64,000 nucleotides of DNA from a phage, in NCBI GenBank assembly GCA_020241125.1, contig GCA_020241125.1_4708.1, one strand, 5' to 3'. The position numbers and the translations under genes are program-made. Numbering within the stretch: the first letter of the stretch is position 1; each line of letters opens with the position of its first letter. The notes under the pieces were generated by a model, which saw nothing but the letters and a program-made list of their open reading frames with translations, made no database searches and was not told where the DNA came from. Shown piece by piece: positions 3,464 through 62,760 of the stretch.

Positions 3464-3491
3464 GAGCCTGTCCTTCGGGGCAGGCTTTTTA
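3464..3491 (+). terminator. intrinsic terminator with UUCG tetraloop
   Basis: AGCCTGTCC-TTCG-GGGCAGGCT followed by TTTTTA, 6 nt after the stop of 2637-3458. Confidence 0.75.
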
Positions 3492-4107: not shown

Positions 4108-4139
4108 CATCCTCCCAACCCGTAAGGGAAGGGAGGATG
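4108..4139. terminator. conserved two-tier hairpin, family copy 1 (bidirectional)
   Basis: CATCCTCCC-AACCC-GTAA-GGG-AA-GGGAGGATG between convergent genes 3795-4103 and 4157-4786. Confidence 0.7.
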
Positions 4140-11198: not shown

Positions 11199-11233
11199 CC
11201 TCCTTCCCTAGCCGTCAAGGCCGGGGAAGGAGG
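11199..11233. terminator. conserved hairpin, family copy 2 (variant loop)
   Basis: CCTCCTTCCC ... GGGGAAGGAGG arms between convergent genes; A10 run at 11177-11187 is a T-run on the minus strand. Confidence 0.65.
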
Positions 11234-12533: not shown

Positions 12534-12548
12534 GTTCGATTCCTCGTA

Positions 12549-12992: not shown

Positions 12993-13104
12993 GGTAGGTT
13001 CCTCTTGATAGTGGTTGATGATAGTAACGGGGACGGCGATGTCCCCTTGGTTTCTTATTGCCCCGCCCGAACCCGATGGGGTACAGGCGGGTGATGTTGA
13101 TGCG

Positions 13105-15078: not shown

Positions 15079-15115
15079 CTTACGCGTCGCGTTCATGATA
15101 CCATGCATCATGAAG

Positions 15116-15367: not shown

Positions 15368-15422
15368 ATAACATGTGTTTACTACGCTCGTTGAGTTATA
15401 ACTCAACGGTAACACATGTCAT
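15368..15422. repeat. nested palindrome
   Basis: Perfect 20-bp palindrome CGTTGAGTTATAACTCAACG (15389-15408) flanked by inverted arms AACATGTGTT and AACACATGT. Confidence 0.6.
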
Positions 15423-15811: not shown

Positions 15812-15846
15812 CCTTCCCCCGACCCGTAAGGGAAGGAGGAAGGGAG
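15812..15846 (-). terminator. conserved hairpin, family copy 3
   Basis: CCTTCCCCCGACCC-GTAA-GGGAAGGAGGAAGGG, 9 nt 3' of the stop of 15855-16748. Confidence 0.65.
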
Positions 15847-15854
15847 AGATTAAA

Positions 15855-16748: not shown

Positions 16749-16887
16749 TTTCTTCCTCGATAGTTGGTACATCACTCTCAAAAGATGTAAGTGTTTACAG
16801 AAATTAATATATTTTATATTAAATGTGAATATTATGGAGAACGACTCCGAATCTCCTTTTCGACCATCAAAATCAGAGGACACGAAC

Positions 16888-17433: not shown

Positions 17434-17632
17434 TAAGCACATAGAGCAATAGTATGGGTTTTGTACAGCTCGGCTATTGATCTTCTACAATTTGGTTGTA
17501 ACAATCTGCGTGGTTGCACGCTTATCTTTCTCATTGAACGCTTCGTATGAAGCGTGGTGTTGAAAGGGTTGTGGATCTCCTCAAGCGGCCAGGGACCCAG
17601 ACCAACCTGAATAAACACAAACACATGTTAAG

Positions 17633-17664
17633 CCCCTCCTCATCCGTTATTGGGTGGGGGGGGG
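17633..17664 (-). terminator. degenerate family-like hairpin with G9 tract
   Basis: CCCCTCCTCA ... TGGGTGGGGGGGGG with the same upstream context (AATAAACACAAACA) as copy 3; 3' of the endolysin gene. Confidence 0.35.
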
Positions 17665-17727
17665 TCTTATACGTCTTTATGCGTTCCGTTCGTTCTGGAG
17701 CGTTTTAGGACGGTTTATGATGGTGTT

Positions 17728-18363
17728 TTACTCAACACTGAACCCGTTCAAGATGATCGCTTCATAACGCTTACGTTCACGACGTTTGCGTGCCTGCCAA
17801 CCGTAGATGAATTTCTCATCTTTCTCACGACGTTCCGCTAATTCGATGTAATAGGTGCTCTGCATGTCCAGCATCGCATCGATGAGATAATCCTTACCGG
17901 TTGCACCACGCTTAGCGATGTAAGCGTCGAGCGCGCTTAACGTCGCAGGTCCCATCAAACCGTCGGCGTTGATATTCTTCCAGTACGTTTGTCGGTTGTT
18001 CATGACGTTCAGATAACGTTGGAGGTTCTTAACCGGGACGGTTTTGCCAGCATTGATACCCAGGTCAAAGAGACGGTCAGCTAAGAACACAGAACGTTTC
18101 ATGACTTCGTCAAGTTTCATCTTATCCCAGAAGTGGGTCTTGTAGATAAAGAACGCCATTTCCGTGGTAAGGTTACGCATGTTACCGTCCCAGCCGAATT
18201 TCGTTTTCAGCGTGGTTTTGTATTGATCGGCGAGTGTTTTCGTAATGCCGTGGTTCGTGATTCCACCCGAGTCATCGGGATCGTCGACGTAACCTGCTTC
18301 GATGCTGGTTTTATCGCGAATGATAAATTCGCACGTGAAATCTTTCTCAGTAATCTTAGCCAT
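17728..18363 (-). CDS. endolysin, GH108-like N-terminal domain plus PG_binding_3-like domain
   Basis: GYVDDPDDSGGITNHGIT matches the GH108 EGGYxxDPxDxGGxTxxGIT core; DGLMGPATLSAL matches the peptidoglycan-binding DGxxGxxTxxAL motif; GAGGAG RBS 6 nt before ATG 18363. Confidence 0.85.
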   Translation of the reverse strand: MAKITEKDFTCEFIIRDKTSIEAGYVDDPDDSGGITNHGITKTLADQYKTTLKTKFGWDGNMRNLTTEMAFFIYKTHFWDKMKLDEVMKRSVFLADRLFDLGINAGKTVPVKNLQRYLNVMNNRQTYWKNINADGLMGPATLSALDAYIAKRGATGKDYLIDAMLDMQSTYYIELAERREKDEKFIYGWQARKRRERKRYEAIILNGFSVE

Positions 18364-18406
18364 TAGAACTCCTCGTTTAAATAACGATTTAGAGGAACAG
18401 GAAGGG

Positions 18407-18484
18407 TCTAGAACGCGATAAACGATTTAACCCAGGCAAACCCTAGATTAAACTTTTCGAAGCGTTACAACGCGTTCTAGAACG
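18407..18484. promoter_or_regulatory. 11-bp inverted repeat plus 12-bp palindrome upstream of the endolysin gene
   Basis: TCTAGAACGCG (18407-18417) and CGCGTTCTAGA (18471-18481), plus palindrome CGTTCTAGAACG (18473-18484), between the tail-fibre stop and the endolysin start. Confidence 0.4.
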
Positions 18485-18489
18485 TTGAA

Positions 18490-20538
18490 TTAAATACCCT
18501 TGGTTCCCTTCACGTGATGTGCAATTTCTTCAACCATTGCACGCAGAGCACGAAGTTGTTGGTCATGTTCGTACCAACCACCCAACAGAACCCCGCTATA
18601 CACCATGGTGTCAAGACTTAACAGCCCTTTATCTGATACGTTGATCATTTCCGGGAACTGTTCTTGAACACGCTGTGCGATAACACCGATCTTCTCGACA
18701 TCAGGATCGTAGTTGTGACGGAAACGGGCAAGTCCGGTATACGCCATTTCACGTAAACGATCACTGAAAGATTCCGGATGATCTTTCAGATAACGAATGT
18801 CATGTTTACTACGTTCATCCGAGCGAATGTAAGCGTTAGGAACATCGATATTGCTGTTGAAGTACAGCGCACTACCACCGCCTGCAGAGTTCCCCCAATA
18901 GAAGCGTGTGATCTCACCGCCACCATTCTCCGTGATGATGACATGTTTACCTAAACGCGTACCGCCACTACCATCAACGAAGACCAGTTTGTTTCCGCTG
19001 TAAGAACCCCAGAACAAACGTGTATCGATGATGTGCGTTGCAGCGAGGCGGGCGTTACGTGGTGTAGAATACACGGTGTTAACATCTTGCTGCGCTTGCG
19101 CATCGGAAGCGATACCATAGTTCTGTACGTTACCTAACCCAACCTGCGCTTTCGTAACCGCGTGTGGGTTATCACGACGGTTAGCGTGAGCGTTAACCAG
19201 ATCACCCGCTAATTTCTGAATTGCCCAGTTGGTAGACTGTGGTGTCATGTAACGGTTAGTTGCAGAACCACCTTGCGCTTCAGCTTGGTTAGCGGTTGGA
19301 TAGTTCTCAACGCTTCCCAACCCTACTTGTGCCTTAGACACTTGGTGTGGGTTGTTCTTGTCAGCGATGTGCGCATTAAGCGGAACTAACGCAAAGGTCT
19401 CAATGGACGCTTTGGTTGTGTTCGGTGCCATTAATCGGTTAGCTGCAACACCGGCACGCGCTTCTTCTTCAGAAGCCATCGGATAGTCTTGCACATTCCC
19501 TAACCCAACCTGCGCTTTGGTTACTCTGTGTGGGTTGTTGTAATCGGCTTTATGTGCATTAAGTGGAATCAATGCGAACTGTTCAATCGCTGCAACAGTG
19601 CGTAGCGGCGTCATGAAACGGTTGTTCGCTGTTCCGGCTTTCGCCTCATCATCCGAAGCGGTCGGGAAGTTATCAACGTTCCCAAGGTTAACCTGTGCTT
19701 TGGTGACGCTATGCGGGTTGTCTCGACGGTTAGCGTGAGCGTCGACTAGATCGCCCGCCAGTTTAGCAATCGCCCATCCAACCGTTTGTGCTGTCATGTA
19801 ACGGTCTGGTGCGGTACCGGCTTCTGCCTCCGCCTTGTTGGCAGTAGGATAGTTCTGTACATTACCTAGTCCGACTTGGGCTTTTGTGGTTTCGTGCGGG
19901 TTATCGGTACGGTTAGCATGTGCGTAATGCAGATCGGTCAGATCTTTATCCGCTGCTTGCATGTCTTTGCGTAACTGATCGATTGCCGCCCAGAGACGGT
20001 TATCGGATGCAGCATCACCGATAAGTATTGCGGCTTTCAGTGAATAGATCGCTAAGCAAAGATGTTCGGTACCGTAGATAGCACTAACGTGGTGGATGTG
20101 TGGTTCAGGCGGATAAAGTTCCGGTTTGTTCTTGATGTCGTCCCAGTTGATCGGACGATCGTCAAGTTTGAGTTCTTCGATAGCCTGATATAACGCGTCA
20201 ATAAGACTTACGTAAACACCACCGATGATACGATAGTCGTTAACTAATGTACCCTCGATATCATCGTTGATGATGGCGATGGCTGCACAGATTTCTTTAC
20301 CAGCGTAAAGCGTAGCGTCCTGATACAAGAAGATGGGCTTATAATCCACACCTCGCACCAGTGTCTTACCGGTAAGCTTTTCGGTGATAACCAGACTTTC
20401 GGTGAAGAACGGTCCGCCATCAAGAGCGTAACATTTGTTCTCGGTTCGTGGAACGGTATGCTCTTCACCAACGATGTGGTTGCTATCGAGCGTGCCGGTC
20501 CAGTCCTCGGGGTACTTCAGGGTAATTGGTGTTGACAT
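18490..20538 (-). CDS. tail fibre with C-terminal intramolecular-chaperone (S74-like) domain
   Basis: Five tandem NPHxVTKAQVGLGNVxNY repeats; C-terminus SDERSKHDIRYL ... IGVIAQRVQEQFPEMI resembles the autoproteolytic chaperone domain of phage fibres and endosialidases. Confidence 0.85.
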   Translation of the reverse strand: MSTPITLKYPEDWTGTLDSNHIVGEEHTVPRTENKCYALDGGPFFTESLVITEKLTGKTLVRGVDYKPIFLYQDATLYAGKEICAAIAIINDDIEGTLVNDYRIIGGVYVSLIDALYQAIEELKLDDRPINWDDIKNKPELYPPEPHIHHVSAIYGTEHLCLAIYSLKAAILIGDAASDNRLWAAIDQLRKDMQAADKDLTDLHYAHANRTDNPHETTKAQVGLGNVQNYPTANKAEAEAGTAPDRYMTAQTVGWAIAKLAGDLVDAHANRRDNPHSVTKAQVNLGNVDNFPTASDDEAKAGTANNRFMTPLRTVAAIEQFALIPLNAHKADYNNPHRVTKAQVGLGNVQDYPMASEEEARAGVAANRLMAPNTTKASIETFALVPLNAHIADKNNPHQVSKAQVGLGSVENYPTANQAEAQGGSATNRYMTPQSTNWAIQKLAGDLVNAHANRRDNPHAVTKAQVGLGNVQNYGIASDAQAQQDVNTVYSTPRNARLAATHIIDTRLFWGSYSGNKLVFVDGSGGTRLGKHVIITENGGGEITRFYWGNSAGGGSALYFNSNIDVPNAYIRSDERSKHDIRYLKDHPESFSDRLREMAYTGLARFRHNYDPDVEKIGVIAQRVQEQFPEMINVSDKGLLSLDTMVYSGVLLGGWYEHDQQLRALRAMVEEIAHHVKGTKGI

Positions 20539-26476: not shown

Positions 26477-27757
26477 ATGTATACATTGGTAAAAACTTAC
26501 GGGTTACCCGTAGGTTCTGGCACGGCCTGGACAGCGCTTGAGGCGGGTGAAAGTGTCCTGAGTACGTTGTTCTCAACGTATCAAAAACTCAAGATCCAGG
26601 TCCACGAAAGCTATGCTGACCAGCAACAAGTTATTGATCTGTACACATTTCAATCCGAGCTTCAAAACAGCAGCGATACGCTCAATGCGTGGTTGAAAGC
26701 GAAATCGGATGCGCATACCAACCTTCGTGGACAGCCTGGCGAGCTGTCGATTAAAACCCACAAGCTTTATTGTCACGACGCTATTACTGTAGGCTTTCTC
26801 CCTAAAGTCGGTAATAGTGGCTATCATCCGAGCAACGCGATCCCTGAGTCGGAACGCACTGATATCCTGTTGACGAAAGCGAATACGAATTACGAAAATA
26901 TCGGCAAACACTGCTTGTTCACCGTAGGCGGTTATGTTCATCCTCACGTCTACGGTAAAGACGTCGGTGTCTATATCCATGGTGGGTTCAAGACGGCACA
27001 GCGCAGCCAAGAAAACGATATCGGCATGATTGATTTTAGCCGTATCGGGAGTTTGGAAATCCATGCTATCACAGAAGAGATGGTTGCTGATTCCACGAAG
27101 CTCTTGCCGTATAAGGACGAGATGTACTTGCGGTTACCGCGCAAGGTCGCCGAAGATGAAACCGTCGCGCTGGTGTTCGGGGGATATTTACATCTTCTTG
27201 ACGATTGTTACACGATCGTTAGCGACACGACAGCGAAAATAAACTGCATTAACATGTTTCTCTATGAACGGTACTTCCGTTCCCGTAAATACCTTGATCT
27301 AACATCTCTTGGTATTCTGTTGAACGAAGAAGACCCACAGTCCGACATTGTTGCCAATCGTTTATTGTCCGATAAAGCATTAAAAGCGTGGGTGACGCAT
27401 CCTTGCAGTTTCTGGGTGTATATCAAAGCAACATCAATTCAGGTTACGCAAGAACCTTTACCACGAAGCGGTGTACCGGGACAGTATTTCTTAGGTAAGA
27501 AACCGGAAGGATTGATTCGGGCCGATCTCGGTGAGTTACCCGCTTACGTGCAGACCTATGAAAAACCGTTATGGGTACTTCACTCGCGCTGGGGACTTCG
27601 TAAGAACATGTTGTTTGAAAATACGTTGTACAAACATACGCGCGTTAAGCGACTTAACGATACGCCTTATCTTCACCAGGTCTGGTTGGAAACGCATGCG
27701 ACGTTGCAGACAGTACACAAGCTCGAATTGATCGATTCCAGTCAGAAAAACAAATAA
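26477..27757 (+). CDS. hypothetical protein (426 aa), plus-strand gene inside the tail module
   Basis: ATG 26477; AATATTAC element about 30 nt upstream; ends at bidirectional hairpin 27768-27799. Confidence 0.7.
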   Translation: MYTLVKTYGLPVGSGTAWTALEAGESVLSTLFSTYQKLKIQVHESYADQQQVIDLYTFQSELQNSSDTLNAWLKAKSDAHTNLRGQPGELSIKTHKLYCHDAITVGFLPKVGNSGYHPSNAIPESERTDILLTKANTNYENIGKHCLFTVGGYVHPHVYGKDVGVYIHGGFKTAQRSQENDIGMIDFSRIGSLEIHAITEEMVADSTKLLPYKDEMYLRLPRKVAEDETVALVFGGYLHLLDDCYTIVSDTTAKINCINMFLYERYFRSRKYLDLTSLGILLNEEDPQSDIVANRLLSDKALKAWVTHPCSFWVYIKATSIQVTQEPLPRSGVPGQYFLGKKPEGLIRADLGELPAYVQTYEKPLWVLHSRWGLRKNMLFENTLYKHTRVKRLNDTPYLHQVWLETHATLQTVHKLELIDSSQKNK

Positions 27758-27767
27758 CCAAACATAA

Positions 27768-27799
27768 CCCTCCTCCAACCCGTAAGGGAAGGAGGAGGG
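27768..27799. terminator. conserved hairpin, family copy 4 (bidirectional)
   Basis: CCCTCCTCC-AACCC-GTAA-GGG-AA-GGAGGAGGG between convergent genes 26477-27757 and 27809-28714. Confidence 0.7.
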
Positions 27800-36867: not shown

Positions 36868-36902
36868 CCTTCTCCCCAACCCGATGAGGGAAGGGGAGAA
36901 GG
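36868..36902. terminator. conserved hairpin, family copy 5
   Basis: CCTTCTCCCC-AACCC-GATGA-GGG-AA-GGGGAGAAGG with perfect 10-bp outer stem; A9 run at 36847-36855. Confidence 0.7.
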
Positions 36903-43330: not shown

Positions 43331-43360
43331 CCTCCCCCAACCCTTGCGGGCTGAGGGAGG
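43331..43360 (-). terminator. conserved hairpin, family copy 6 (variant loop), 3' of the capsid candidate
   Basis: CCTCCC-CCAA-CCC-TTGC-GGG-CTGA-GGGAGG. Confidence 0.6.
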
Positions 43361-43459
43361 CTGACTTATGTATCACGGTGCCGGATGAATGTCCGGTGCA
43401 ATGAAACCATCCGCAACGTTGTCGTCAAGAATATCATCCAACGAAGCAGCTACGGTAGT

Positions 43460-45682
43460 TCAGTTAGTCTGAACAGGCAGCTTGATGTTTTCAGTGTAGA
43501 CCTTACGCAGGTTCACAACGTTAATCAGACCCAGCAGCGGGCAGTTGTTAACGAAGCGGCAGCGCGGCTGAACCATGGTTTCTTTAGAAACCTGACCGTT
43601 ACGGGTAACCTGAGCAACAGATACCAGTTCCGGTACATACAGGAACATACCGAAGGTCAGCGGATCCGGAGAACCCTGGATACCACGAGACAGGGTCACG
43701 AAGATCTTATCGCGCAGCATGACGTTCGGGTTATCTACAACTACGAAGTTGAAGCTTACACCAACGGTACGGAAATCACCATCGGTCTGCAGGAACTGCG
43801 GGATGTAGTTGTCAGTTGCTACTACGCAACGCGGTTTCTCATCAGCGTTGGAAGACAGCAGCTGCAGAGCTGGCTGATAACCAGACTCGGAGTACATGCG
43901 GTATGCCATCTCACGAATCACGTTCATGATCGCAGCAGACACTTCAGCACGACGTTCTGCAGTGGTGGTACCCTGAACAGATTTCTCCAGGTCCAGATTG
44001 ATTTCTTCGAACCACGGACGGATCAGGTAACGACCGAAACCTTCGATCTGGATGTCACCGAACTGACGGAAGCGAGAGGTCGCAACCGCTTTCAGTGCGT
44101 CTTTGTAGCTGAACAGTTTCTCAACCATCAGGTTGTCGAAACGTGCGTTAGCAGCTTGGATCAGAACGTCCAGGTCAGCAGCGTTTTCTTCCCAATCCAG
44201 CGGACGAGGAATGGAGAACGGAGCCAGCAGGCCGATTGCGTAACGTTCTTGCTTCATGTTGAAGTCAAGGTGCTTACCGCGCTCACGACGGTTGCTGTTG
44301 TTACGGCGGATACGCAGTTCGTAACCAACCAGTTTGAAGCTCAGGTCTTCAGCCAGTTGTTTGAACTCTTCGCTCTTACGCGGTTGTTCGATGTTGTCCT
44401 GATCAACCAGGCGATACAGTTCAGCGTTAGCGCCGTTAACACGCAGACCGGCTTTCTCTACGTTGGAAGAACCGTAAACTTCGATCGCCAGCTGAGCAGC
44501 AGATTTCGCATCGATGATGTCCTGCAGCGCTTCAGCTTTCGCGCCTTTAACGTCTTTGGTGTTCTCATCAACGAAGATGGAGTGGGTGTCGAACGCCAGG
44601 GTCATTTTGCGGAAGTCGCCTTCCAGGGATTTCTGGAAACCGTTGGTGATCAGACCAGATACGTCGAACGGTACGTAAGAGGTTTTGCTGTGCTTGGTAG
44701 ATTTGATTTCCACCAGGATTTTGGTCAGCGTGATCTGGGCGTCCAGCGCGTCGGTGTTGTCGCTGTAACCGTTAGCCAGGATGCTATCGTCTTCAGCAAT
44801 ACCGATCATGTCGATCAGTTTATCAACAGCCAGGTAAGACGTTTTGTAAGTTACGCCTTTAATTTCGATGTCGCGCGGAGCAACGATAGCTTTGTCAACG
44901 AAGTACTGTGCGTTAGCATCGTCAGCACGATAGATCGGATGCAGATCGGTCACGTCGTTGGACAGAACGTCGTTGTACATGAACGCATCCAGCAGCGGAC
45001 GACGTACCCAATCAGCCGGAGTACCGTCAGCGTTACGACGCAGGTGGTTGAACACCAGCGGACGACGGAAAGATACGTCGTAACCGATCTGGTTCGGAGC
45101 CAGAACGATGGTGTTGTACAGTTCGTTACCCATGCGGCTCAGACGAGAAGCCTTCACGTTGAACACAACGGAGTACGGCATCATGTCACGCAGTTCTTTC
45201 TGGTCGTAGGACAGCTGAACCAGTTCTTCAGATTCGCAACCGCAGGAATCAGCAGCCATCATGACGAAGTTAGAGCTGTCAACTTCACGGCCAGACGGAG
45301 TGGTGCTGATGTTCATGGAACGTGCTTGTTTAGCATATTCTACCGGGTTACCATGAGCCAGCATGATCAGTGCTGCTGCACGAGCCTGCTGTGCGTTCAT
45401 GGTGAACAGCTGTTCTTCAATACGCTGCTTCTCTTCCGGAGTGGTGGTTTCGAAGCCCAGCATGGACAGAACCGGTTCTTCGGCTTTACGGATGTCGCTG
45501 CTGAAGCTCTTAACATCCATTTCGTTAACCAGTTTGTCCATGGATTTGAAATCAACCTTAGAAGCAGATTCCATAGACAGGAAGGTGTTCTCCAGACCTT
45601 TGTCTGCTGGTTTGCTACCATTAGCGGTCAGGAACTGGCGAGTGGCCGCGACCTGTTGGCTAAGAAGGGTTTTATCATTCAT
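43460..45682 (-). CDS. candidate major capsid protein (740 aa)
   Basis: Strongest codon optimisation in the window, so the plus-strand ORF 43385-45685 is an antisense shadow; AAAGGA RBS; size fits jumbo-phage capsid proteins (recollection, not verified). Confidence 0.6.
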   Translation of the reverse strand: MNDKTLLSQQVAATRQFLTANGSKPADKGLENTFLSMESASKVDFKSMDKLVNEMDVKSFSSDIRKAEEPVLSMLGFETTTPEEKQRIEEQLFTMNAQQARAAALIMLAHGNPVEYAKQARSMNISTTPSGREVDSSNFVMMAADSCGCESEELVQLSYDQKELRDMMPYSVVFNVKASRLSRMGNELYNTIVLAPNQIGYDVSFRRPLVFNHLRRNADGTPADWVRRPLLDAFMYNDVLSNDVTDLHPIYRADDANAQYFVDKAIVAPRDIEIKGVTYKTSYLAVDKLIDMIGIAEDDSILANGYSDNTDALDAQITLTKILVEIKSTKHSKTSYVPFDVSGLITNGFQKSLEGDFRKMTLAFDTHSIFVDENTKDVKGAKAEALQDIIDAKSAAQLAIEVYGSSNVEKAGLRVNGANAELYRLVDQDNIEQPRKSEEFKQLAEDLSFKLVGYELRIRRNNSNRRERGKHLDFNMKQERYAIGLLAPFSIPRPLDWEENAADLDVLIQAANARFDNLMVEKLFSYKDALKAVATSRFRQFGDIQIEGFGRYLIRPWFEEINLDLEKSVQGTTTAERRAEVSAAIMNVIREMAYRMYSESGYQPALQLLSSNADEKPRCVVATDNYIPQFLQTDGDFRTVGVSFNFVVVDNPNVMLRDKIFVTLSRGIQGSPDPLTFGMFLYVPELVSVAQVTRNGQVSKETMVQPRCRFVNNCPLLGLINVVNLRKVYTENIKLPVQTN

Positions 45683-45831
45683 TGAAAGTATCCTTTACAG
45701 AATTAACTTATATAAGTCGGTCGATAGACCATAGCGTACACGCGTGCATGCGCCACTATAGTATCAGTAAACACTTACCGTTATTGAGGTCGTGATACAA
45801 CACTAAAAATGCCGCATAACTTTTCCCTACG

Positions 45832-46452
45832 TCACAAACGACGCAGGCGATAATGGATGGAACGATTGGTGCAATATGAACGGAACAGCGGCAATTGCGC
45901 AACTTCCGCAAGACTCATATTAATTCGCAGGTGTTCAATAACGGCGCTGTAGTTATCAGCAATACGATCGCTCAATAACTCTTCTGCCAATAAAGGAAGA
46001 CAATCGACAACAATCGCGATCACATCCTCATTAACATAACGCACCCGAACACTCAACGGACGTTTGTCTGGGCTGTAAGTTGGATCCGCCAAACGACGTT
46101 CAATATCACGCGGATAGCTCGTCAGTAAATGGTAATAACCATTGTCATAACGATTGATGTACTCACACAGCACATCAACATTCTTCTCTGGCGGCAAACC
46201 TGTTTCGTCATAGTGATACGCAAACATACCACCAAGCAGGTTGTTAAGATGAACCGCAGGGTTCGCTTGTTCGTGTTCTTTCGTGATGAAGAAAGGCACG
46301 TTCTGGGCTGCGAAATAAAAACCTACATCATTGGGCGATAGTATGCCGAAAAGACTTTTAGGGTCTAATAACACCTGTAAGTCATCACGCGCATTTCGAA
46401 TAATCGCGTGTTCTACCCAATTCGGAACGACGAGATATCGGAGTTCCTTCAT
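45832..46452 (-). CDS. hypothetical protein (206 aa)
   Basis: ATG 46452 with AGAGG RBS; immediately upstream of the capsid candidate. Confidence 0.65.
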   Translation of the reverse strand: MKELRYLVVPNWVEHAIIRNARDDLQVLLDPKSLFGILSPNDVGFYFAAQNVPFFITKEHEQANPAVHLNNLLGGMFAYHYDETGLPPEKNVDVLCEYINRYDNGYYHLLTSYPRDIERRLADPTYSPDKRPLSVRVRYVNEDVIAIVVDCLPLLAEELLSDRIADNYSAVIEHLRINMSLAEVAQLPLFRSYCTNRSIHYRLRRL

Positions 46453-46491
46453 TATGATTACCTCTTTGCAAGTATCGAAAGGATTGAGTCG

Positions 46492-48102
46492 ATGGACCCA
46501 AAACAGATAGCCATTAAGATTATTACGTTACTGTTTCGTAATGCACAATTGAACCATCCCGATCCCAGTACGATCGAACATGTTAAATCCGTCTTAGATA
46601 AAGTCGAACCCCCGAAAAACCATCTCGCTACAGACGTAGATAGAGAGGTTTTCAACAACCTGATGAATACCATTCATTGGATGTTGGAACAACCATTATC
46701 GGAACCTTTCGATAAACAACAGTTGTTACAAAGGATACGTTTGGATTGCCTTGAACAAAGCAATCTTTACGAGATTCTTGCCGACGGACTGTACGATATC
46801 GAAGACGACGCTCATATCAGTAAGGTCTGTTCACTCTATTACAACGAATTACGTAATCTGATTACCCGTCGTCGTGTTTTCGAAACCTTTAGAAACACGT
46901 ACATGGATATCAGTAACGGGCGACTTGGGGATAAAGAATTTTTCGATGCAATGGCGAATCTGAAATTATCGCTAGACAGTATCGAAATGGATACCGAAAA
47001 TCCCGAAGAGATGTCGTGTATGATTGACGGCTTTATCGCTGACAGCGAAGACGATATCGAGAAAGTCGAACGTATGTTCGTCAAAGCGATGGAACGTAAC
47101 AGTCCTGAAGGTGGATTTGTAACCGGCTGGCAAGGCTTTAATAAAATGTTGGGGTCGGTCGGTGTTTTACGTCGCGGTACCTTAGGACTGATTGGTGCAA
47201 TGCAGCACCGGAACAAGTCAGGCGTGTTGTTAAAACTGTTCACACATCTGGCATTGTACAACAAACCCCATTTCTTTTTCCCGGAGCGAGCAAAGAAAGC
47301 ATTACTGATTCATTTGTCGACAGAAAACGAAGTGGAAGAAAACACGCTTCAGATATACAAGAACATGCGAGAACAGGAAACAGGCGAATATGTCGATATT
47401 CGTAAGATTGACCCTCGCGAGGCATCACGTTATGTGTTGAAGGTGTTCAACGATGCGGGTTTCTCTGTTTGTATGCGTCGTGTTGATGGGATGAGTTATA
47501 AACAACTCGCTAATCTCATCGACCATTTCGAACGCATGGGTTATGAAGTCATGGCGTTGTTCATTGACTATCTGAAAATGTTCTCATCGGAAGGGCTGGA
47601 TAGAAATGGACCGACCGGCGCATGGCTCCAAGAACTCTTCAACAAAGTCCGTAACCTCTGCAGTGTTAAACGTATTTTAGGCATGACCGTACACCAGCTG
47701 TCATCCGATGCGAAGATGCGTGCACGTGATGGCAACGATGAAGAGTTTGTTGACCAAGTCGCAGGTTTAAGTTACTGGGATGGTTGTAAAGGGATTGACC
47801 GTGAGATTGACCTTGAAGTGATTGTTGATATCGTTAAGGAACCGGGCAAACGTCAAAGCTGGCAAGTCTTTGCATTAGGGAAAGACCGTCAACCGGATAA
47901 CGGTTCAACGAAACCTGAAGACAAACACTTCGCAATGCCATTCCAAACCATCGGGATGCTTCCTGATGATTACGGTAAGAAAGCAGTGTATTGCCGCAAG
48001 GTTGGCGGACAACCTGTCTCCGAGGGAGGTAAAGGTCCGTGGAACAAGTTCGATGAAAACGCAGCACCGAGTAATGAATTACAATTTGATTTAGAATTTT
48101 AA
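46492..48102 (+). CDS. possible DnaB-like (SF4, RecA-fold) helicase
   Basis: ALFIDYLKMF resembles DnaB H2/Walker B (hhhhDYLQLM); degenerate Walker A-like LIGAMQHRNKSG; QLSSDAKMRAR resembles the H3 region; start taken at ATG 46492 (ORF opens at 46408). Confidence 0.45.
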   Translation: MDPKQIAIKIITLLFRNAQLNHPDPSTIEHVKSVLDKVEPPKNHLATDVDREVFNNLMNTIHWMLEQPLSEPFDKQQLLQRIRLDCLEQSNLYEILADGLYDIEDDAHISKVCSLYYNELRNLITRRRVFETFRNTYMDISNGRLGDKEFFDAMANLKLSLDSIEMDTENPEEMSCMIDGFIADSEDDIEKVERMFVKAMERNSPEGGFVTGWQGFNKMLGSVGVLRRGTLGLIGAMQHRNKSGVLLKLFTHLALYNKPHFFFPERAKKALLIHLSTENEVEENTLQIYKNMREQETGEYVDIRKIDPREASRYVLKVFNDAGFSVCMRRVDGMSYKQLANLIDHFERMGYEVMALFIDYLKMFSSEGLDRNGPTGAWLQELFNKVRNLCSVKRILGMTVHQLSSDAKMRARDGNDEEFVDQVAGLSYWDGCKGIDREIDLEVIVDIVKEPGKRQSWQVFALGKDRQPDNGSTKPEDKHFAMPFQTIGMLPDDYGKKAVYCRKVGGQPVSEGGKGPWNKFDENAAPSNELQFDLEF

Positions 48103-48106
48103 ACGC

Positions 48107-48163
48107 AAAAAAAAAAAAAGATTGTGCGGTTCCCTCCTCCAACCCGTAAGGGAAGGAGGAGGG
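48107..48163. terminator. conserved hairpin, family copy 7, with A13/T13 run
   Basis: CCCTCCTCC-AACCC-GTAA-GGG-AA-GGAGGAGGG (48132-48163) plus A13 at 48107-48119; between convergent genes. Confidence 0.75.
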
Positions 48164-48179
48164 GTTATGACCGCTTTGA

Positions 48180-48506
48180 TTAACTTATTGTCATGAATTC
48201 ATTAGGTGAAAATTTCCAGCCGTTCTCGGTGAGAAGCGTGTTGAGTTTCGCTGCAACGATAAGCCATGCGTGCATGGCTGTTACATCGTATTGGCGATTC
48301 ACTCGACGTTGGTTTTCGATATTGATTTGCTCCTGTTCAGTGATGTTTGGATAAAGTGCGATAGCGCTAGGTTTACCCAGCGCGCTAGTCATCACCGCCG
48401 TACATTCACTGATAATGTTGTTTAAGTGGTAGTTATACACCGTTCCACGCATGACGCGATGACGGCATTCGATAATAGCGTCGTAAATGATTTCTCGAGT
48501 AATCAT
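48180..48506 (-). CDS. hypothetical protein (108 aa)
   Basis: Intact ORF; followed by conserved hairpin 48132-48163 and T13 run. Confidence 0.55.
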   Translation of the reverse strand: MITREIIYDAIIECRHRVMRGTVYNYHLNNIISECTAVMTSALGKPSAIALYPNITEQEQINIENQRRVNRQYDVTAMHAWLIVAAKLNTLLTENGWKFSPNEFMTIS

Positions 48507-48512
48507 GATAAT

Positions 48513-48914
48513 TTAAAACATACGGTCGTTTTTAGCACGGGCGTCCATTACCAGATCGTAGATGCCTGCGGTTCGTAAGCACTCTTCGTAGTAACGATGT
48601 GTGCCTTCCTCAGCCATCCACGATAACCCTCGGCTATCCGCAACGATAACCAGTTTGTTATTGTTGAACGCACACACCACACGGTATGTCGCGTTGTTAT
48701 TCGGATCGCGAGTGATGAGTTCATAGACGCCGTTAACAGGTTTACTGAATTCGCCGTTTAACGGAACGAGTTCGGTAGTACCTTCAGCAAACGTTACGTT
48801 GATCGGTGATGGATCTTTAGCGATAACAGTATATTCCACATTGTGTTCTTTACTGGTCATAATACCGAAGTAAGAACTCACAGGGGAACGCGGTACACTA
48901 AGAATATTAAACAT
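48513..48914 (-). CDS. hypothetical protein (133 aa)
   Basis: ATG 48914 with AGAGGA RBS. Confidence 0.6.
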   Translation of the reverse strand: MFNILSVPRSPVSSYFGIMTSKEHNVEYTVIAKDPSPINVTFAEGTTELVPLNGEFSKPVNGVYELITRDPNNNATYRVVCAFNNNKLVIVADSRGLSWMAEEGTHRYYEECLRTAGIYDLVMDARAKNDRMF

Positions 48915-48984
48915 AAATGTTGTCCTCTTAATTGGATTTAGATTGTTGGGTATGTGATTGGGAAATGAAAACGTTGTTTCGGTT

Positions 48985-49554
48985 TTAGACGATGAGTGAC
49001 CAGGTAGTAAGCACCCCGCTTGCGAATTCGAGCTTAAGACGTTTACCGATAAGTTGTTGCTGGATCATCTTCTCGGTGATACGTCGATCATGCTGAACCG
49101 CTTTATCAAACGCTTCTTTCGCTTCAGCTTGGTAGAAGTTCGTTTCTTCGTTTTCGTCGATCTCTTCGAGAGCATCGTCGTCGATGTCAGCAAGTTTCAC
49201 TCGACCGTTTTCATCAGGTTGTTCTGCAGGTTCATTGTCATACGGCGTGTCTTTTGTTGGTGCGACACGATGTTGCAACTCGACCTGCGTTAACATGATC
49301 TCCATCTCACCATCGATAGGAATGATTTCATCGGCGCTGCCGTTTTCGGTCAACTCTCGACTTTCCAGTAATGTCGTCGTAACAGAGAACACCTCTTCAA
49401 CAGGAACCTCATCATCGTCGATAGTGTTAACCGTATTGCTGGTAACTTCGGCAACGACCATCAAATCGAATGCGTGAGGATCGCCTGGCATTTTGATTCC
49501 TGGAAGTTTGTTGAGGTACCAAGGATCGAGAATCATGATTTCTGGATTGAACAT
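48985..49554 (-). CDS. acidic hypothetical protein (189 aa)
   Basis: Intact ORF, strongly D/E-rich. Confidence 0.6.
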   Translation of the reverse strand: MFNPEIMILDPWYLNKLPGIKMPGDPHAFDLMVVAEVTSNTVNTIDDDEVPVEEVFSVTTTLLESRELTENGSADEIIPIDGEMEIMLTQVELQHRVAPTKDTPYDNEPAEQPDENGRVKLADIDDDALEEIDENEETNFYQAEAKEAFDKAVQHDRRITEKMIQQQLIGKRLKLEFASGVLTTWSLIV

Positions 49555-49629
49555 CGTTTTTACCTTTCTATGTTAGGTGGGTTGCGGATAGAAGAATCAA
49601 TGCATAGACTGATTTAAGTTTGTTAAGGT

Positions 49630-50532
49630 TTACTTAGTCTTCGAGTTACAAGGACTGACATGTTGTTGTACTCGTTGAATCGTATCGTAGTACGGGTTAG
49701 ATTGGTTGAACATGCTGTTGTGTGGATGATAGCCGTATGGCGCATTTTGCCTTGTTGATGAGAAACCTTGTTGAGAAGGACGATTTGAATTAACCGCGAG
49801 TACGTAGTAAACCAAATTTTGACGGTCGAACGTTCCTTCGTTTTTGAAGGTGTCGGCGTAGGTGTTTATCGCTGGAGCGAGTCTATCACCATCGGCGGTA
49901 ATAATTGTACCGTCTGGGTAAACTTCACGAACGACGCACCATGTTCCGATAAGAACGTCTTTGGGCGGCGTATTGCCGTATCCGGTTGTAACGGTAAGGT
50001 AAGTATCGAACCCTTCAGAACAACAAGGATGACGATAGATAGGTCCTGTCATTTCCGTTCTATCGGTATCGTCGCATTTCTCTATCGAGAGCGATGGTGT
50101 GTCGGTTTTGAAATTGTCAAATTCTTTCTTTAAGTCGATTACAGGTTCTTTCGTATAGTACTTCTTGATTGCTTTGACGTAAAGATCAGGAACGGTTGTC
50201 AGCATTCCGTTATACCTGATTCTCAGGTTTTCGAGTAATCCAAAGATACTCGCGCATGCTTGTTCGCGAGGTTTTGTAAGATAAGAGATCCCCCCAGGAA
50301 CGCTGGGATCTTTGAGAAAGAAGATTGCGTTATTGTCGTTGTGCAGTGCGTTGAAGAAAACGATTGATTCGATATATACGGAGCATAGGCTGTCGTTGGC
50401 GTCGTCAGATAACACCCAGATGCACTCATCGGTCGTCTTGTTTAAAAGTTCTGTTTTGTCCACCAAACGTTGTTTCATTGCGAGGAAATGTGCCTGTTGT
50501 TCAGCGGATAATTCACGATAAATAGTGGTCAT
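49630..50532 (-). CDS. hypothetical protein, tandem paralog of 50618-51391
   Basis: ORF 49630-50610; ATG 50532 with AAGGAG RBS; IYRHPCCSEGFDTYLTVTTGYG ... VREVYPDGTII aligns with IYIHPECHTTYDRYLTITGG ... IREIYPDGRIV. Confidence 0.7.
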   Translation of the reverse strand: MTTIYRELSAEQQAHFLAMKQRLVDKTELLNKTTDECIWVLSDDANDSLCSVYIESIVFFNALHNDNNAIFFLKDPSVPGGISYLTKPREQACASIFGLLENLRIRYNGMLTTVPDLYVKAIKKYYTKEPVIDLKKEFDNFKTDTPSLSIEKCDDTDRTEMTGPIYRHPCCSEGFDTYLTVTTGYGNTPPKDVLIGTWCVVREVYPDGTIITADGDRLAPAINTYADTFKNEGTFDRQNLVYYVLAVNSNRPSQQGFSSTRQNAPYGYHPHNSMFNQSNPYYDTIQRVQQHVSPCNSKTK

Positions 50533-50617
50533 GTTGAGCTCCTTGATTACGATAAGGATGATTGCGGTTTTGTGATGCTGGTAGGGCCCTAAACAAAGGA
50601 GCCCTACCAATATTGGG

Positions 50618-51391
50618 TTACTCAGGATCGGCGTAGAAATGGTGAGGATAGCCGGAGTACGATCCCGCGTTACCGGCTATGGATTCTTTCTGGGAATCGA
50701 CGACGAGCGCATAGAACTGTCGGGAATTTGTTAGCGTTGAGAAATAAGCGGAAAGGACTTTTTCATTCAACGCATCGCAAGGTAGACAGGTGCGACCGCA
50801 AAACGTCACGATACGGCCGTCGGGATAGATCTCACGAATCATTCTCCACTCACCGATATCCACTGGTGATGGCGCTGCTACACCACCTGTTATCGTTAAG
50901 TAACGATCGTACGTGGTATGGCATTCAGGATGAATATAGATCGGCTTGTTCGTTTCGACAGGTTCCGAAGTATCTCGACGACTAAGAAGCTCAACGACTT
51001 CAAGATAAATCGTTGGTAGATCGCGGAGAATACCGGTGCTACGACGTTTCTTTGTGATTCGCGGACGAATCTCGTTGAGAGCGTATTCGAGCTTACGTTC
51101 AGCTTCGTACGCATCGAGTTTTATCAGGCGACCCGGTTCATCGGAATGATCCTGAGTTACGTAAACGAAATACGCGTTGCCTTTTGCAGCGTGAAAGATT
51201 CGAGCGACCTTAAATGTTTCTACGGTACGATACCCAAGGCGCGATTGATTTTCCACAGGAGAAAATATCCAATGTCGTCCTTCGTCCGCCTCAACAATTT
51301 CGTTGAAACTATCCGTTTGTTCTGGGACCTGGTAGTCAGCCATTAATGTATCAAGAGCGTCGTCAGCCAGTTTGATGTAAATATCTGTCAT
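50618..51391 (-). CDS. hypothetical protein, tandem paralog of 49630-50532
   Basis: ORF 50618-51604; ATG 51391 with GAGGAT RBS; promoter-like motif and inverted repeat just upstream. Confidence 0.7.
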   Translation of the reverse strand: MTDIYIKLADDALDTLMADYQVPEQTDSFNEIVEADEGRHWIFSPVENQSRLGYRTVETFKVARIFHAAKGNAYFVYVTQDHSDEPGRLIKLDAYEAERKLEYALNEIRPRITKKRRSTGILRDLPTIYLEVVELLSRRDTSEPVETNKPIYIHPECHTTYDRYLTITGGVAAPSPVDIGEWRMIREIYPDGRIVTFCGRTCLPCDALNEKVLSAYFSTLTNSRQFYALVVDSQKESIAGNAGSYSGYPHHFYADPE

Positions 51392-51424
51392 GTTTGTATC
51401 CTCGGCTATTAAGAGAAATTTACA

Positions 51425-51462
51425 GTGATAACAGTAACCGTTGTTATCACCTAGGTAATGTA
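51425..51462 (-). promoter_or_regulatory. conserved 16-mer plus adjacent 9-bp inverted repeat
   Basis: GTGATAACA-n8-TGTTATCAC (51425-51450) overlapping TCACCTAGGTAATGTA (51447-51462); about 35-70 nt upstream of ATG 51391. Confidence 0.4.
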
Positions 51463-51495
51463 GTCGCGAAATAAACTGGGTTAGACAGTATATGA

Positions 51496-51527
51496 CCCTC
51501 TCCCAACCCGTAAGGGAAGGGAGAGGG
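51496..51527 (-). terminator. conserved hairpin, family copy 8
   Basis: CCCTCTCCC-AACCC-GTAA-GGG-AA-GGGAGAGGG, 5 nt 3' of the stop of 51532-52899. Confidence 0.7.
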
Positions 51528-51531
51528 AATA

Positions 51532-52899
51532 TTAAACGGTTGGACGAACAGTATTGTCTTTTTCTGGTGCAATCCATAACGTGACTGTACCATGGCATGT
51601 CCACTGCGGTTCACGCACAGAAGAACCTGCCATTGTAACAGCGCAATCGGTACGCATGATAACCCCGTATGCTTCGCAGAGATTGTTATCCTGCATCCAC
51701 ACAACTTTAGCGGGCATGCCAGGATACAACAAATCCATGTTTGCGTATTCCCACACCAACTGCATCGTTCTACCGCGTAATCCGGCAGTATTGCTTAATT
51801 CACGCCATCGGTTATCGGTTACGCGTCCCATCCCTTTCGCCACTTTCACGTTATCGCTACGTTCTTCAGTTACGTACTCGCTAACGTTTACGGTACGACT
51901 GATGATCGTATCACCCCCTTTTGATAATGTCATTCCCTGACTCATCTGACTTGCCGAAACAAAACGCCCACCCGCATTACCTAACAACGAAGCCGCGTTA
52001 TTGATGTCGCTTACCGACGCCCCTCTCGTACACGCAATTTCCACGTATTTGTCACGATTGATCCAGGTCTTGTCCATGCCCGGAAACATATCGGCAGGAT
52101 AGTTGTAAAAGATCGCCGTGCGCCGACCGTCAGAGAAACGGGTTTCGTCGTATAAGGGGTAGATATACAGATACGGGGATTGATAATAACAACCGACGTC
52201 AGCTGAATAAATACCGACCTGGTTCTGTATTTTATCTACGAGATCCATCGCATTGGTACCGTGTGGAAGAATAAGCAACTTGAATGGGTTGTCGTTATTC
52301 GGTGCAACAATATCCACACCCTGCATTTTGAATCCGGTGTCAGCTTCAACCGCAGAAAGTATCTTGCTGAATTCAAGTCGCAGTACATCCAGCACTTTCG
52401 ACCCAGTATAGTTCTCACCGGTTTCTGATTGCATGAAGCTTTCAAGAACAGGATCGAACAGTTGAAATTGAAGATCGACCATTTGTTCGTAGTCTTTCTT
52501 CGAAGAATCGGTTGCGGTACGTTCGTCGGTAGCGGACATACGACTGTCTACGGTTGTTAAACAAACCGCTCGGTAGACGTAAGCTTGTGCGGCATCGTCT
52601 ACGGTTTGGCGTTGTCCGCGCATCAGGCTGTACGCCTGCACGATGATGCGCATTTTAAGTTGTTGTTGGTACGGTAGAATGTATTTTCCGTAACTGCCGG
52701 GCGGGAACTTTACAGAGATATAGAGTTCATCTCCAGCGTTACGTTCATAGTCTCGATACGTGTGGACTTGAGTCACTAAAGGAACAGACACCGTCATTGA
52801 CGGCGTGATTAATTCCGCGGTGACTTTATACGCAACAGCAACTGCTTCCTGCGCAAATGTACCGATATACCGTCCTAACGGCGTCTGTTTGTAATCCAT
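51532..52899 (-). CDS. hypothetical virion-module protein (455 aa)
   Basis: Intact ORF with ATG 52899; followed by conserved hairpin 51496-51527. Confidence 0.75.
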   Translation of the reverse strand: MDYKQTPLGRYIGTFAQEAVAVAYKVTAELITPSMTVSVPLVTQVHTYRDYERNAGDELYISVKFPPGSYGKYILPYQQQLKMRIIVQAYSLMRGQRQTVDDAAQAYVYRAVCLTTVDSRMSATDERTATDSSKKDYEQMVDLQFQLFDPVLESFMQSETGENYTGSKVLDVLRLEFSKILSAVEADTGFKMQGVDIVAPNNDNPFKLLILPHGTNAMDLVDKIQNQVGIYSADVGCYYQSPYLYIYPLYDETRFSDGRRTAIFYNYPADMFPGMDKTWINRDKYVEIACTRGASVSDINNAASLLGNAGGRFVSASQMSQGMTLSKGGDTIISRTVNVSEYVTEERSDNVKVAKGMGRVTDNRWRELSNTAGLRGRTMQLVWEYANMDLLYPGMPAKVVWMQDNNLCEAYGVIMRTDCAVTMAGSSVREPQWTCHGTVTLWIAPEKDNTVRPTV

Positions 52900-54820: not shown

Positions 54821-56372
54821 AGCGTTTCACTCCTACGATGGTACCGACAAGAATTCTCGGTACGAATAAACTACGATGTTTGAACCACGAAGCGGTTGTT
54901 GGGATACGTTTGATGGCTTCGATAAGCCCGATTAGCGTATAGCACCCCCGACTGTTCTTCTTAGGCCAGTACTTTTTATCTAGACCTAATACTGCAAACA
55001 GCTCATCCACCAGATTGGGATAACAACACAACGCTTCAAGTGTTTCAACCTGTAACTGACTTAAATCTAACAGTATCGCCAGACGAACGTGGTAATCACT
55101 CCGTAAGTCTAACGGATCTTTCGCTTCAAGATCGCCAACGTCGGTTAATGTCCACGCGTCTCTTGCGTAGCGGTATTTGCCCTTCCAAACCTCAAGGAAA
55201 AAAGGAGACTGGTAATGACATTTTGACCATTCTGGGTACTCACGGAACCACCGAACAAGATCGGGATGGAATTCACCTTCTTCGGCTAACGAGTCCAACG
55301 TCACCAACAGGTTAGGTTGTTCAGGATCGATGGCAAGCAGCGCGGTGAAAAGCGTGCTTGATGGAAGTTCGGTTTCCACACTTGATGGCGGTAGCCATTC
55401 ATCCAGATCAGGATACCGATACGCTTGAATCGACGCACCCTGCTCGGGCAAGAACGAATCACGAAGAATGTCCTGATACTGCACCACCATACCACCACGA
55501 CGCGCACGGGATTTATCACGCACCGAAAGGCTCGGTTTGTAAAGGTACTCTTCGGGGAGTATCTGTTGGTGTACTTGAACAGGATACCGTGCTACGATAT
55601 GTGTTGGCGTGTCGTACGTGTAACGGTAAGAGAAGGTTGCGTTGTACGAAGAACTGTTCTCATTCTTCTCTGGCTTCGGAGCGTCGGTGAAATCAAATTG
55701 ACCAGAGATCTCTTCTTGCATTTCCCTGATAACCAATTTAACGCTCTTACCGTCACCGGCAACTGTCGTCATGGTGGTTGCGCGGTTGTCGAACCCGTCT
55801 CTAAGGTATTCGCTGAACTTATCCCCGTAACCCGCTATTGCTTCCCGGTGTGTATGAATAACTTTTAACAACATGAGAAACTGTGTTGGGATCGCATAGC
55901 TGTATTCGGCGCTAAGGAAGGCAGCGACATGCTGACTTGTGAGCAACCGTTTCATGTCGTACCACCAACGTTCGGCAGTGACCTGATCTTCGAACCGTTT
56001 GGTGATCTGCATGGTTGCAACCATCGTACTGTAAACAGGTACTAACGATACGCCAAGGTTACGGTCTTCAAATACGGGAAGACTGTTTCGTTTGTAAACG
56101 GTATCGTACATAGAGGCCTGTTCTTCAGGGACAATGTTAAGCTCAATTTGGATAAACCCGTCAGCAGGCCCCTTTACATCCTGATCAACAACTTGCGGCG
56201 GTTGCTCGTTCGCAGCACTCATTTTAGCGTGAAGAGCTTCCCCTCGAAAAAGAATGTTCTCCCGACTATAATCCCACCCGCAAAGCTCGCTGATCTGCCG
56301 TAACACCGCGATTGCAACCGGACGTGTTACCGTCGCGTATACGTCATTGATTTTTCGATCAAGTTTAGGCAT
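54807..56372 (-). CDS. hypothetical virion-module protein (about 521 aa)
   Basis: ORF 54807-56399 begins with GTG; ATG 56372 with GAGGA RBS sits 3 nt after the upstream stop. Confidence 0.75.
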   Translation of the reverse strand: MPKLDRKINDVYATVTRPVAIAVLRQISELCGWDYSRENILFRGEALHAKMSAANEQPPQVVDQDVKGPADGFIQIELNIVPEEQASMYDTVYKRNSLPVFEDRNLGVSLVPVYSTMVATMQITKRFEDQVTAERWWYDMKRLLTSQHVAAFLSAEYSYAIPTQFLMLLKVIHTHREAIAGYGDKFSEYLRDGFDNRATTMTTVAGDGKSVKLVIREMQEEISGQFDFTDAPKPEKNENSSSYNATFSYRYTYDTPTHIVARYPVQVHQQILPEEYLYKPSLSVRDKSRARRGGMVVQYQDILRDSFLPEQGASIQAYRYPDLDEWLPPSSVETELPSSTLFTALLAIDPEQPNLLVTLDSLAEEGEFHPDLVRWFREYPEWSKCHYQSPFFLEVWKGKYRYARDAWTLTDVGDLEAKDPLDLRSDYHVRLAILLDLSQLQVETLEALCCYPNLVDELFAVLGLDKKYWPKKNSRGCYTLIGLIEAIKRIPTTASWFKHRSLFVPRILVGTIVGVKRYGAR

Positions 56373-56748: not shown

Positions 56749-56800
56749 CGCAGATTCCTGTTTGAAAGATAAGATATCACATGATGGTCGACAGCATAAA

Positions 56801-56820
56801 GCCCACCCCGAAGGGCGGGC
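56801..56820 (-). terminator. GC-rich hairpin 3' of the 1125-aa gene
   Basis: GCCCACCCC-GAA-GGGCGGGC; on the minus strand followed by TTTATG; not a member of the conserved family. Confidence 0.45.
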
Positions 56821-56836
56821 TGTTTATGCGTACGGA

Positions 56837-62621: not shown

Positions 62622-62728
62622 TTGGGACTCCTACGTAGGAAAATCTTGGCGGGTGATCATGTCCGCCATTTACCTTCTGAACCGTTGATTCAGAAGTCAA
62701 AAGATAACCGGATACCAACGCCATAAAA

Positions 62729-62760
62729 CCTTCCTCCAACCCAACAGGGAAGGAGGAAGG
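62729..62760 (-). terminator. conserved hairpin, family copy 9
   Basis: CCTTCCTCC-AACCC-AACA-GGG-AA-GGAGGAAGG, 3' of 62771-63922. Confidence 0.7.

Follow-up and report, generated by a model that had tools for sequence, protein, structure and literature searches.

Two-tier hairpins at transcription-unit ends in a Goslar-like jumbo phage: probable terminators of a conserved chimallivirus type

In a phage DNA stretch of 64,000 nucleotides (referred to below as the window), a gene for a DnaB-like helicase on the plus strand ends at position 48102 and faces a minus-strand gene that ends at 48180. The short spacer of this convergent junction carries a hairpin with a second, smaller hairpin in its loop. 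A preliminary description had assigned it to a family of at least nine such elements placed at the ends of transcription units, and had suggested that their stereotyped core could also be a processing or protein-binding element. We ask here what these hairpins do, and what the inner module contributes.

Reading of the sequence confirmed the coordinates and the common architecture of the nine copies, i.e., a pyrimidine arm, AACCC, a tetraloop, GGG, AA and a purine arm; only for the copy given as 15812-15846, whose architecture holds, is the end better set at 15843. The copies carry 13–17 nt between the arms, which form a 3–4-bp inner stem with a tetraloop. On either strand a copy folds into a 9–10-bp outer stem, a 2x2 internal loop, a 3-bp inner stem and the tetraloop, with an exception at 43331, located 99 nt past the major head protein gene, where the minus sense gives a single continuous 13-bp stem with a GCAA loop. 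For the two-tier fold of each copy, minimum free energies of -20.9 to -26.5 kcal/mol, z-scores of -3.4 to -5.65 and an ensemble frequency of about 0.94 were obtained. An alternative pairing GCGGT/ACCGC at 48132 was rejected, as it is broken without compensation in a relative.

The motif is far more frequent than expected by chance and is confined to the spaces between genes. With up to one mismatch, the pattern AACCCNNNNGGGAAGG was found six times in the window, always on the plus strand, against 0.11 matches expected, and perfect hairpins with pyrimidine/purine arms occupied 10 loci vs. 0.25 in Markov shuffles. Run over the window with filters off, a covariance model trained on six copies recovered all nine, seven at E-values of 6e-14 to 1e-7 and the copies at 11199 and 43331 at 0.003–0.005. 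It gave zero coding matches below E=0.2, so the motif is not equally frequent in coding regions. All nine copies are intergenic, and hairpins of -22 kcal/mol or lower were found at 13 intergenic sites and one gene edge vs. two coding sites, although coding sequence makes up 93% of the window. The gaps between the copies and the stop codons of minus-strand genes amount to 4–99 nt, in line with the proximity described before, and the plus-strand genes listed earlier as ending at a copy do so.

Two degenerate relatives had also been proposed. The one at 17633-17664 belongs to the family as the decayed ortholog of a hairpin that is perfect in IMG/VR contig 3300011560_000001. The hairpin at 26-47 (8.8 bits, E about 5) is terminator-like, yet its arms are of mixed composition and it therefore falls outside the two-tier family. 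An additional relative, overlooked at first, lies at 13061-13091, 13 nt past the minus-strand gene that ends at 13105. Searches of the whole window gave no Rfam matches at gathering thresholds and no tRNA genes. Coordinates of the features are collected in Table 1.

Table 1. Hairpins, their relatives and flanking elements in the window
Feature	Position	Strand	Details
Focal two-tier hairpin, CCCTCCTCC-AA-CCC-GTAA-GGG-AA-GGAGGAGGG	48132..48163	.	56.1 bits; -25.2 kcal/mol, z -4.6
TATG, 2 nt past the focal stem in plus sense	48166..48169	+	flank pattern
A13 run, U13 in minus-sense RNA, 12 nt past the hairpin	48107..48119	-	sequence
Two-tier hairpin, convergent junction	4108..4139	.	52.2 bits; TATG on both sides (4099-4102 as CATA, 4143-4146)
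Variant two-tier hairpin, 10-bp outer stem, inner GCC/GGC, convergent junction	11199..11233	.	18.9 bits; -26.4 kcal/mol
Extra relative, CCCGCC arms, inner ACCC-GATG-GGGT	13061..13091	.	12.4 bits; -23.6 kcal/mol, z -4.6
Two-tier hairpin, tandem-minus junction	15812..15843	.	52 bits; TATG on minus-sense side only (15806-15809 as CATA)
Decayed copy	17633..17664	.	minus sense only -13 kcal/mol, z -1.7
Two-tier hairpin filling a 51-nt convergent spacer, flanks CATAA/AATATG	27768..27799	.	56.1 bits
Two-tier hairpin, 10-bp outer stem, 5-nt loop, convergent junction	36868..36902	.	34.9 bits; -26 kcal/mol; TATG on both sides
Variant copy, tandem-minus junction	43331..43360	.	19.6 bits on minus strand; -26.5 kcal/mol
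Two-tier hairpin, 4 nt past the minus gene ending at 51532	51496..51527	.	55.3 bits
Two-tier hairpin, AACA loop, tandem-minus junction	62729..62760	.	49.7 bits; TATG on minus-sense side only (62722-62725 as CATA)
Non-family terminator-like hairpin, UUCG loop, then TTTATG; after plus gene 2637-3458	3464..3487	+	terminator in Goslar annotation
Non-family terminator-like hairpin, flanks GCATAAA/TTTATGC	56799..56823	-	Goslar-annotated terminator 55080-55101

Positions 44000-52000 of the window match Escherichia phage vB_EcoM_Goslar at 97% identity over 78% of the length and, judged from its sequence, the window is a close relative of this E. coli jumbo phage, a nucleus-forming chimallivirus. The 237-kb Goslar genome encodes a nuclear shell protein, the PhuZ tubulin and many split RNA polymerase subunits of the phiKZ type, and is thus that of a chimallivirus related to phiKZ. 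Several of the hairpins are already entered as “putative transcriptional terminator” in Goslar’s GenBank record; the counterparts of the copies at 11199, 17633 and 27768 are those at 11186-11220, 17603-17637 and 27746-27777, respectively. An IMG/VR scan for AACCCGTAAGGGAAGG found multiple copies only in Goslar and in two further Goslar-like contigs, 94–100% identical to the window in the overlap; single matches in other IMG/VR contigs lacked the outer stem or scored low, and no intermediate relatives were found among them. In a phage-collection search with the major capsid protein, the next relative after the Goslar-like phages, Erwinia phage pEa_SNUABM_54, was only 34% identical. The Goslar lineage is therefore isolated, which leaves the origin of the inner module untraceable.

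Several differences and peculiarities were noted near the hairpins. The copy at 51496 adjoins an insertion of about 1.8 kb relative to Goslar (window 49630-51450), with two ORFs on the minus strand (326 aa and up to 328 aa), for which Pfam gave nothing; Goslar has gp047 (62 aa) at this place. An AT-rich stretch of about 830 nt (14985-15811), downstream of hairpin 15812 when read in the minus sense, contains no ORF longer than 56 aa and no Goslar-annotated gene, and holds hairpins at 15677-15701 and 15373-15418 together with TTATG sites; it may encode a non-coding RNA or have a regulatory function. An Rfam scan of the 14900-15900 gap by E-value returned isrI as the sole match, at chance level. 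An unusually long ORF of 766 aa (43385-45685, plus strand) lies in exact antisense to the gene for the 740-aa major head protein (43460-45682, minus strand), probably as a by-product of codon usage.

The whole Goslar genome was used for genome-wide counts of hairpins, junctions and flanks. It contains 41 loci with pyrimidine/purine hairpins, 39 of them intergenic. The hairpins occupy 15–18 of about 20 convergent junctions vs. 20 of 196 tandem-minus ones, and the two-tier form prevails at convergence (17/18 convergent copies vs. 11/20 tandem, p=0.009), while plain single-tier forms resembling those of phiKZ occur in Goslar at tandem junctions only (117670, 132987, 140971). Convergent spacers measure 51–83 nt and consist almost wholly of flank, hairpin and flank. 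The simplest reading of this arrangement is that the longer stem serves tighter two-way termination where polymerases would otherwise collide. One full-scoring Goslar hairpin (134585-134616), 11 nt past the end of gp146, lies inside the annotated gene gp145 (75 aa; 134413-134640, 34413-34640 in L003), and the 3′ end of gp145, or gp145 itself, may be mis-annotated.

Beyond the stems, flanks that the preliminary description had overlooked are also kept: on the plus strand, CATA(A) precedes the hairpin and (T)TATG follows it, so that RNA from one or both strands reads as a hairpin followed by (U)UAUG. Minus-sense tails in the window include TTTATGTTTGTG (after GGAAGG), TTATGTTTGG and TTTTATGGCG. 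These flanks depend on the type of junction. At tandem-minus junctions of Goslar, TATG stands within 10 nt on the minus-sense side of 16 of 20 hairpins and on the plus-sense side of four of 20; at convergent junctions the plus-side TATG is present at 13 of 18 (background 1.5%; Fisher p=0.0028). The hairpin-adjacent TATG thus follows the direction of incoming transcription. A third pairing tier between CATA and TATG was rejected, since tandem junctions carry the motif on one side only. The non-family hairpins at 3464-3487 and 56799-56823 share the flanks, which makes the TATG a general signal that is not tied to the two-tier core.

At the focal junction, the TATG at 48166..48169 is read as the directional part of a terminator for the incoming plus-strand transcript. 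This copy, like that at 51496, is without a minus-side TATG, and the A13 run at 48107..48119 probably provides the U-tract for minus-strand transcripts. The length of this run differs among relatives (A13 in the window, A9 in Goslar, A10 in L028), and comparable A-runs lie to the left of other Goslar convergent-junction hairpins, at 36815, 146586 and 200201.

Measured against canonical Rho-independent terminators, the copies have the GC-rich hairpin; their tails are T-rich yet interrupted in the minus sense and merely A/T-rich, not U-tracts, in the plus sense. A consensus intrinsic-terminator scan of positions 1-20000, which include three of the nine copies, flagged only that at 15812. Bacterial bidirectional intrinsic terminators are alike in that a single perfect palindrome serves both strands and the flanks are inverted repeats; they differ by long A/U tracts in the place taken here by CATA(A)/(T)TATG.

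A close match is provided by phiKZ. ONT-cappable-seq of this phage defined 133 termination regions, 61 of which share 5′-BCCYCCCCHWWDGGGRRGGBYTTATKYYGT-3′ (Putzeys et al., 2024; PMC10914365). Our scan of phiKZ 1-50 kb found 13 pyrimidine/purine hairpins vs. 0 expected, with CATAAG/CTTATG flanks, for example GCATAAG-CCCTCCC-ATTGC-GGGAGGG-CATTATG. The published phiKZ RNA 3′ ends fall 4–9 nt past the scanned stems (supplementary Table S4, 10.1101/2023.10.13.562163), and two pairs among them, T012/T013 and T018/T019, are bidirectional between convergent genes. Like the phiKZ motif, the nine copies combine a perfect stem of a pyrimidine 5′ arm and a purine 3′ arm with a YTTATK(YYGT)-like 3′ flank (TTAT(G) tail), CATAA on the opposite flank, an intergenic site just past stop codons and an arrangement between convergent genes such as phiKZ uses bidirectionally; the minus-sense flank GGAAGG-TTTATGTTTGTG fits the phiKZ terminator motif. 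The fixed-spacing phiKZ-tail pattern GGRRGGNNTTATK was matched just once, because the distance between stem and tail varies and a fixed spacing is too rigid. This shared design, like the structure, intergenic placement, covariation (see below) and flank directionality, was computed or seen here directly. The loop sets the two apart: phiKZ hairpins have a 6–8-bp stem and a plain loop of 4–11 nt, whereas the short plain loop of the motif (HWWD, about 4 nt) is absent from the nine copies, which instead carry a 14-nt mini-hairpin, AA-CCC-GNRA-GGG-AA, on an outer stem of 9–10 bp. The mapped 3′ ends in this comparison are those of phiKZ; for Goslar, an RNA-seq time course has been recorded (10.1101/2023.09.20.558163).

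In phage 201phi2-1, which has a motif closely similar to that of phiKZ, a subset of the hairpins is elongated and 15 sites are bidirectional; eight of its terminators stopped transcription in vivo in reporter assays (PMC11512511). The likeness to the hairpins described here is that of a conserved chimallivirus terminator sequence (motif A) lengthened in a subset by a second motif (the elongated A/B hairpin); it is drawn from the published description, and the authors relate the longer hairpins to a possible resistance against antitermination rather than to convergent junctions (PMC11512511). In 42 kb of Erwinia phage pEa_SNUABM_54, strong intergenic stems (L038: 3025-3056, 8316-8354, 16957-16995, 22393-22432, 27808-27853) have GGCATA/TATGCC flanks and one stands at a convergent junction; unlike the copies in the window, these stems have a mixed composition and UUCG-type loops, and pyrimidine/purine arms were found in two only. 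The AACCC-GNRA-GGGAA module was found neither in these 42 kb nor in phiKZ 1-50 kb. The TATGC tail thus seems to be more widely conserved across chimalliviruses than the pyrimidine/purine stem.

By analogy with these phages, the hairpins are probably intrinsic transcription terminators for the phage’s own multisubunit RNA polymerases, in a Goslarvirus form of the conserved chimallivirus terminator. phiKZ is transcribed by its own non-canonical multisubunit RNA polymerases, and it is presumably such enzymes of the phage that the hairpins serve here. The earlier proposal of terminators at transcription-unit ends that act bidirectionally at convergent junctions is in this way supported, by the likeness to phiKZ in arms, flanks and placement together with the occupancy of convergent junctions in Goslar. 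In the mechanism that we propose, nascent RNA would form a perfectly paired stem, its 5′ arm rich in C and U and its 3′ arm in G and A. As the pyrimidine/purine asymmetry is the same on both strands, one DNA element would give an equally stable hairpin from either side. Release would follow a few nucleotides later, within the short (U)UAUG stretch, and from phiKZ we infer that RNA ends at the hairpin sites in this phage. With (U)UAUG standing on the side or sides where transcription arrives, copies at convergent junctions would be bidirectional. The inner AACCC-GNRA-GGGAA mini-hairpin would take the place of the short phiKZ loop; most likely it does no more than make the stem longer and more stable, so that termination in both directions is tighter where genes collide.

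A different reading is that the hairpins stabilise or process 3′ ends, so that exonucleases trim transcripts back to the stem and the polymerase is not stopped. Very stable GC-rich stems at gene ends and the weak U-tracts of the plus-sense tails would fit such a role, and the 3′ ends obtained by ONT sequencing in phiKZ cannot separate termination from exonuclease trimming. However, a stem-adjacent, directional TATG has no role in a pure exonuclease block, collisions at convergent spacers of 51–83 nt would be left unsolved, and the terminators of 201phi2-1 stopped transcription in the reporter assays (PMC11512511). We consider trimming alone unlikely.

Slightly less likely again is that the non-virion polymerase uses the hairpin-adjacent TATG as its late promoter core, the elements being terminator-promoter cassettes or hairpin-dependent promoters that restart transcription downstream. 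Late promoters of phiKZ have TATG as their core, with +1 at the G, and require it (PMC4666361), the beta-like subunit of the phiKZ non-virion polymerase reads this TATG on the non-template strand (PMC12809450), and the source of late-promoter specificity remains open (PMC4666361; PMC12809450); at tandem junctions, moreover, the TATG points at the next gene. Yet TATGs at convergent junctions would fire antisense into the facing gene, and the plus-side TATG is present mainly where plus-strand transcription arrives. In phiKZ 1-50 kb not one mapped transcription start coincides with a hairpin-adjacent TATG, the starts lying 25–50 nt further on at other motifs. Since the TATG tracks incoming transcription and no mapped start in this part of phiKZ falls on such a site, it probably belongs to the terminator, and a promoter role is unlikely.

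The reading of TATG by the beta-like subunit at late promoters means that the elongating enzyme might re-read it just past a hairpin. It is conceivable, though we regard this as doubtful, that hairpin and TATG together make up a termination signal specific to chimallivirus RNA polymerases, in which TATG acts as a sequence-specific pause in place of a long U-tract and the two-tier, invertible module is a Goslarvirus-specific two-way reinforcement. If so, the same four bases would start or stop transcription depending on context, which would bear on why most genomic TATGs are not promoters.

As regards the inner module, the preliminary description had noted that the outer stems co-vary while the core is kept. 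This covariation is real. In 16 distinct strong copies from four Goslar-like genomes, six of the nine outer pairs show double changes, almost all from C-G to U-A and thus preserving the pyrimidine/purine asymmetry; 97.8% of cells in the alignment are paired, no one-sided changes occur, and the inner CCC/GGG is invariant, although these copies were selected and fitted by the covariance model, which favours pairing and partly builds in the invariance of the inner module. The inner stem does vary in weaker copies (GCC/GGC at 11199; others in Goslar, some with bulges).

In IMG/VR contig 3300045988_173921, which is 95–99% identical to the window, the 14-nt inner module is reverse-complemented at the orthologs of the copies at 4108 and 48132, both at convergent junctions, with outer arms and flanks identical (window 4117-4130 and 48141-48154, AACCCGTAAGGGAA, vs. 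9531-9562 in L026 and 8898-8929 in L028, TTCCCTTACGGGTT). On a given transcript, the inversion changes AA/GUAA to UU/UUAC. It looks like a product of recombination or template switching between the inverted arms, which, being perfect, would yield exactly such an in-place inversion. As far as these sequences tell, both orientations are tolerated, and the in-place inversion in a close relative means that the module requires neither a fixed orientation nor, by extension, recognition on a particular strand. The orientation is nevertheless biased in Goslar (13:3), which a purely symmetric role does not account for. The loops appear to have moved as well. The copies at 15812 and 62729 have the same outer arms; the former carries GTAA (15826-15829) where the orthologs in Goslar and L022 have AACA, and the latter AACA (62743-62746) where three orthologs have GTAA. 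This suggests that loops were exchanged between copies by gene conversion, and conversion of this kind could be behind much of the module’s uniformity.

These observations bear on the proposal that a phage factor binds the inner module at transcript 3′ ends and acts in, for example, antitermination, termination, or the handling or export of mRNA from the phage nucleus. AA-CCC...GGG-AA is unchanged in the 16 strong copies, whose outer stems differ, most copies have a GNRA loop, and export of mRNA from the phage nucleus is required in chimalliviruses (PMC11077065). Against this stand the module flipped in place at two orthologous sites, the variation of inner stem and bulges in weaker copies, an invariance that partly reflects model-based selection, and the lack of such a module in the phiKZ and Erwinia sequences scanned; we find the proposal very improbable. 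ChmC was rejected as a binding partner, its eCLIP peaks lying near start codons and showing no motif (PMC11077065). The earlier suggestion that the core is a special processing or protein-binding mark is not upheld, because the conserved terminator sequence is typical of chimalliviruses, the module is inverted with nothing else changed, and loops are apparently exchanged.

Least probable of all is that the hairpins are selfish or DNA-level palindromes (REP/MITE-like repeats or cruciform recombination sites) with no transcriptional role: many near-identical copies, the signs of loop exchange and in-place inversion and the gene-content differences next to copy 51496 would fit, but traceable copies keep their orthologous place in all Goslar-like genomes that span a given site (two to four per site), compensatory changes keep the pairing, directional flanks fit gene orientation, almost all convergent junctions are occupied, and in place of variable orthologous presence, target-site duplications or gene-end-independent placement we found positions tied to junction type and to stop codons a few nucleotides away.

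The terminator type itself was already known; new here are the two-tier form of the loop, the enrichment at convergent junctions, the directional TATG and the invertible module. Of these, the directional TATG, identical to the late-promoter core, and the concentration of the two-tier form at convergence may not have been reported before. The inversion of the module in place between near-identical phages is a clean natural experiment, in which its orientation proved dispensable. For engineering, the hairpins are compact candidate two-way terminators, and for Goslar they give about 40 candidate transcription-unit boundaries. Taken as terminators, they extend a design conserved in the Pseudomonas phages phiKZ and 201phi2-1 to a widely used model chimallivirus of E. 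coli.
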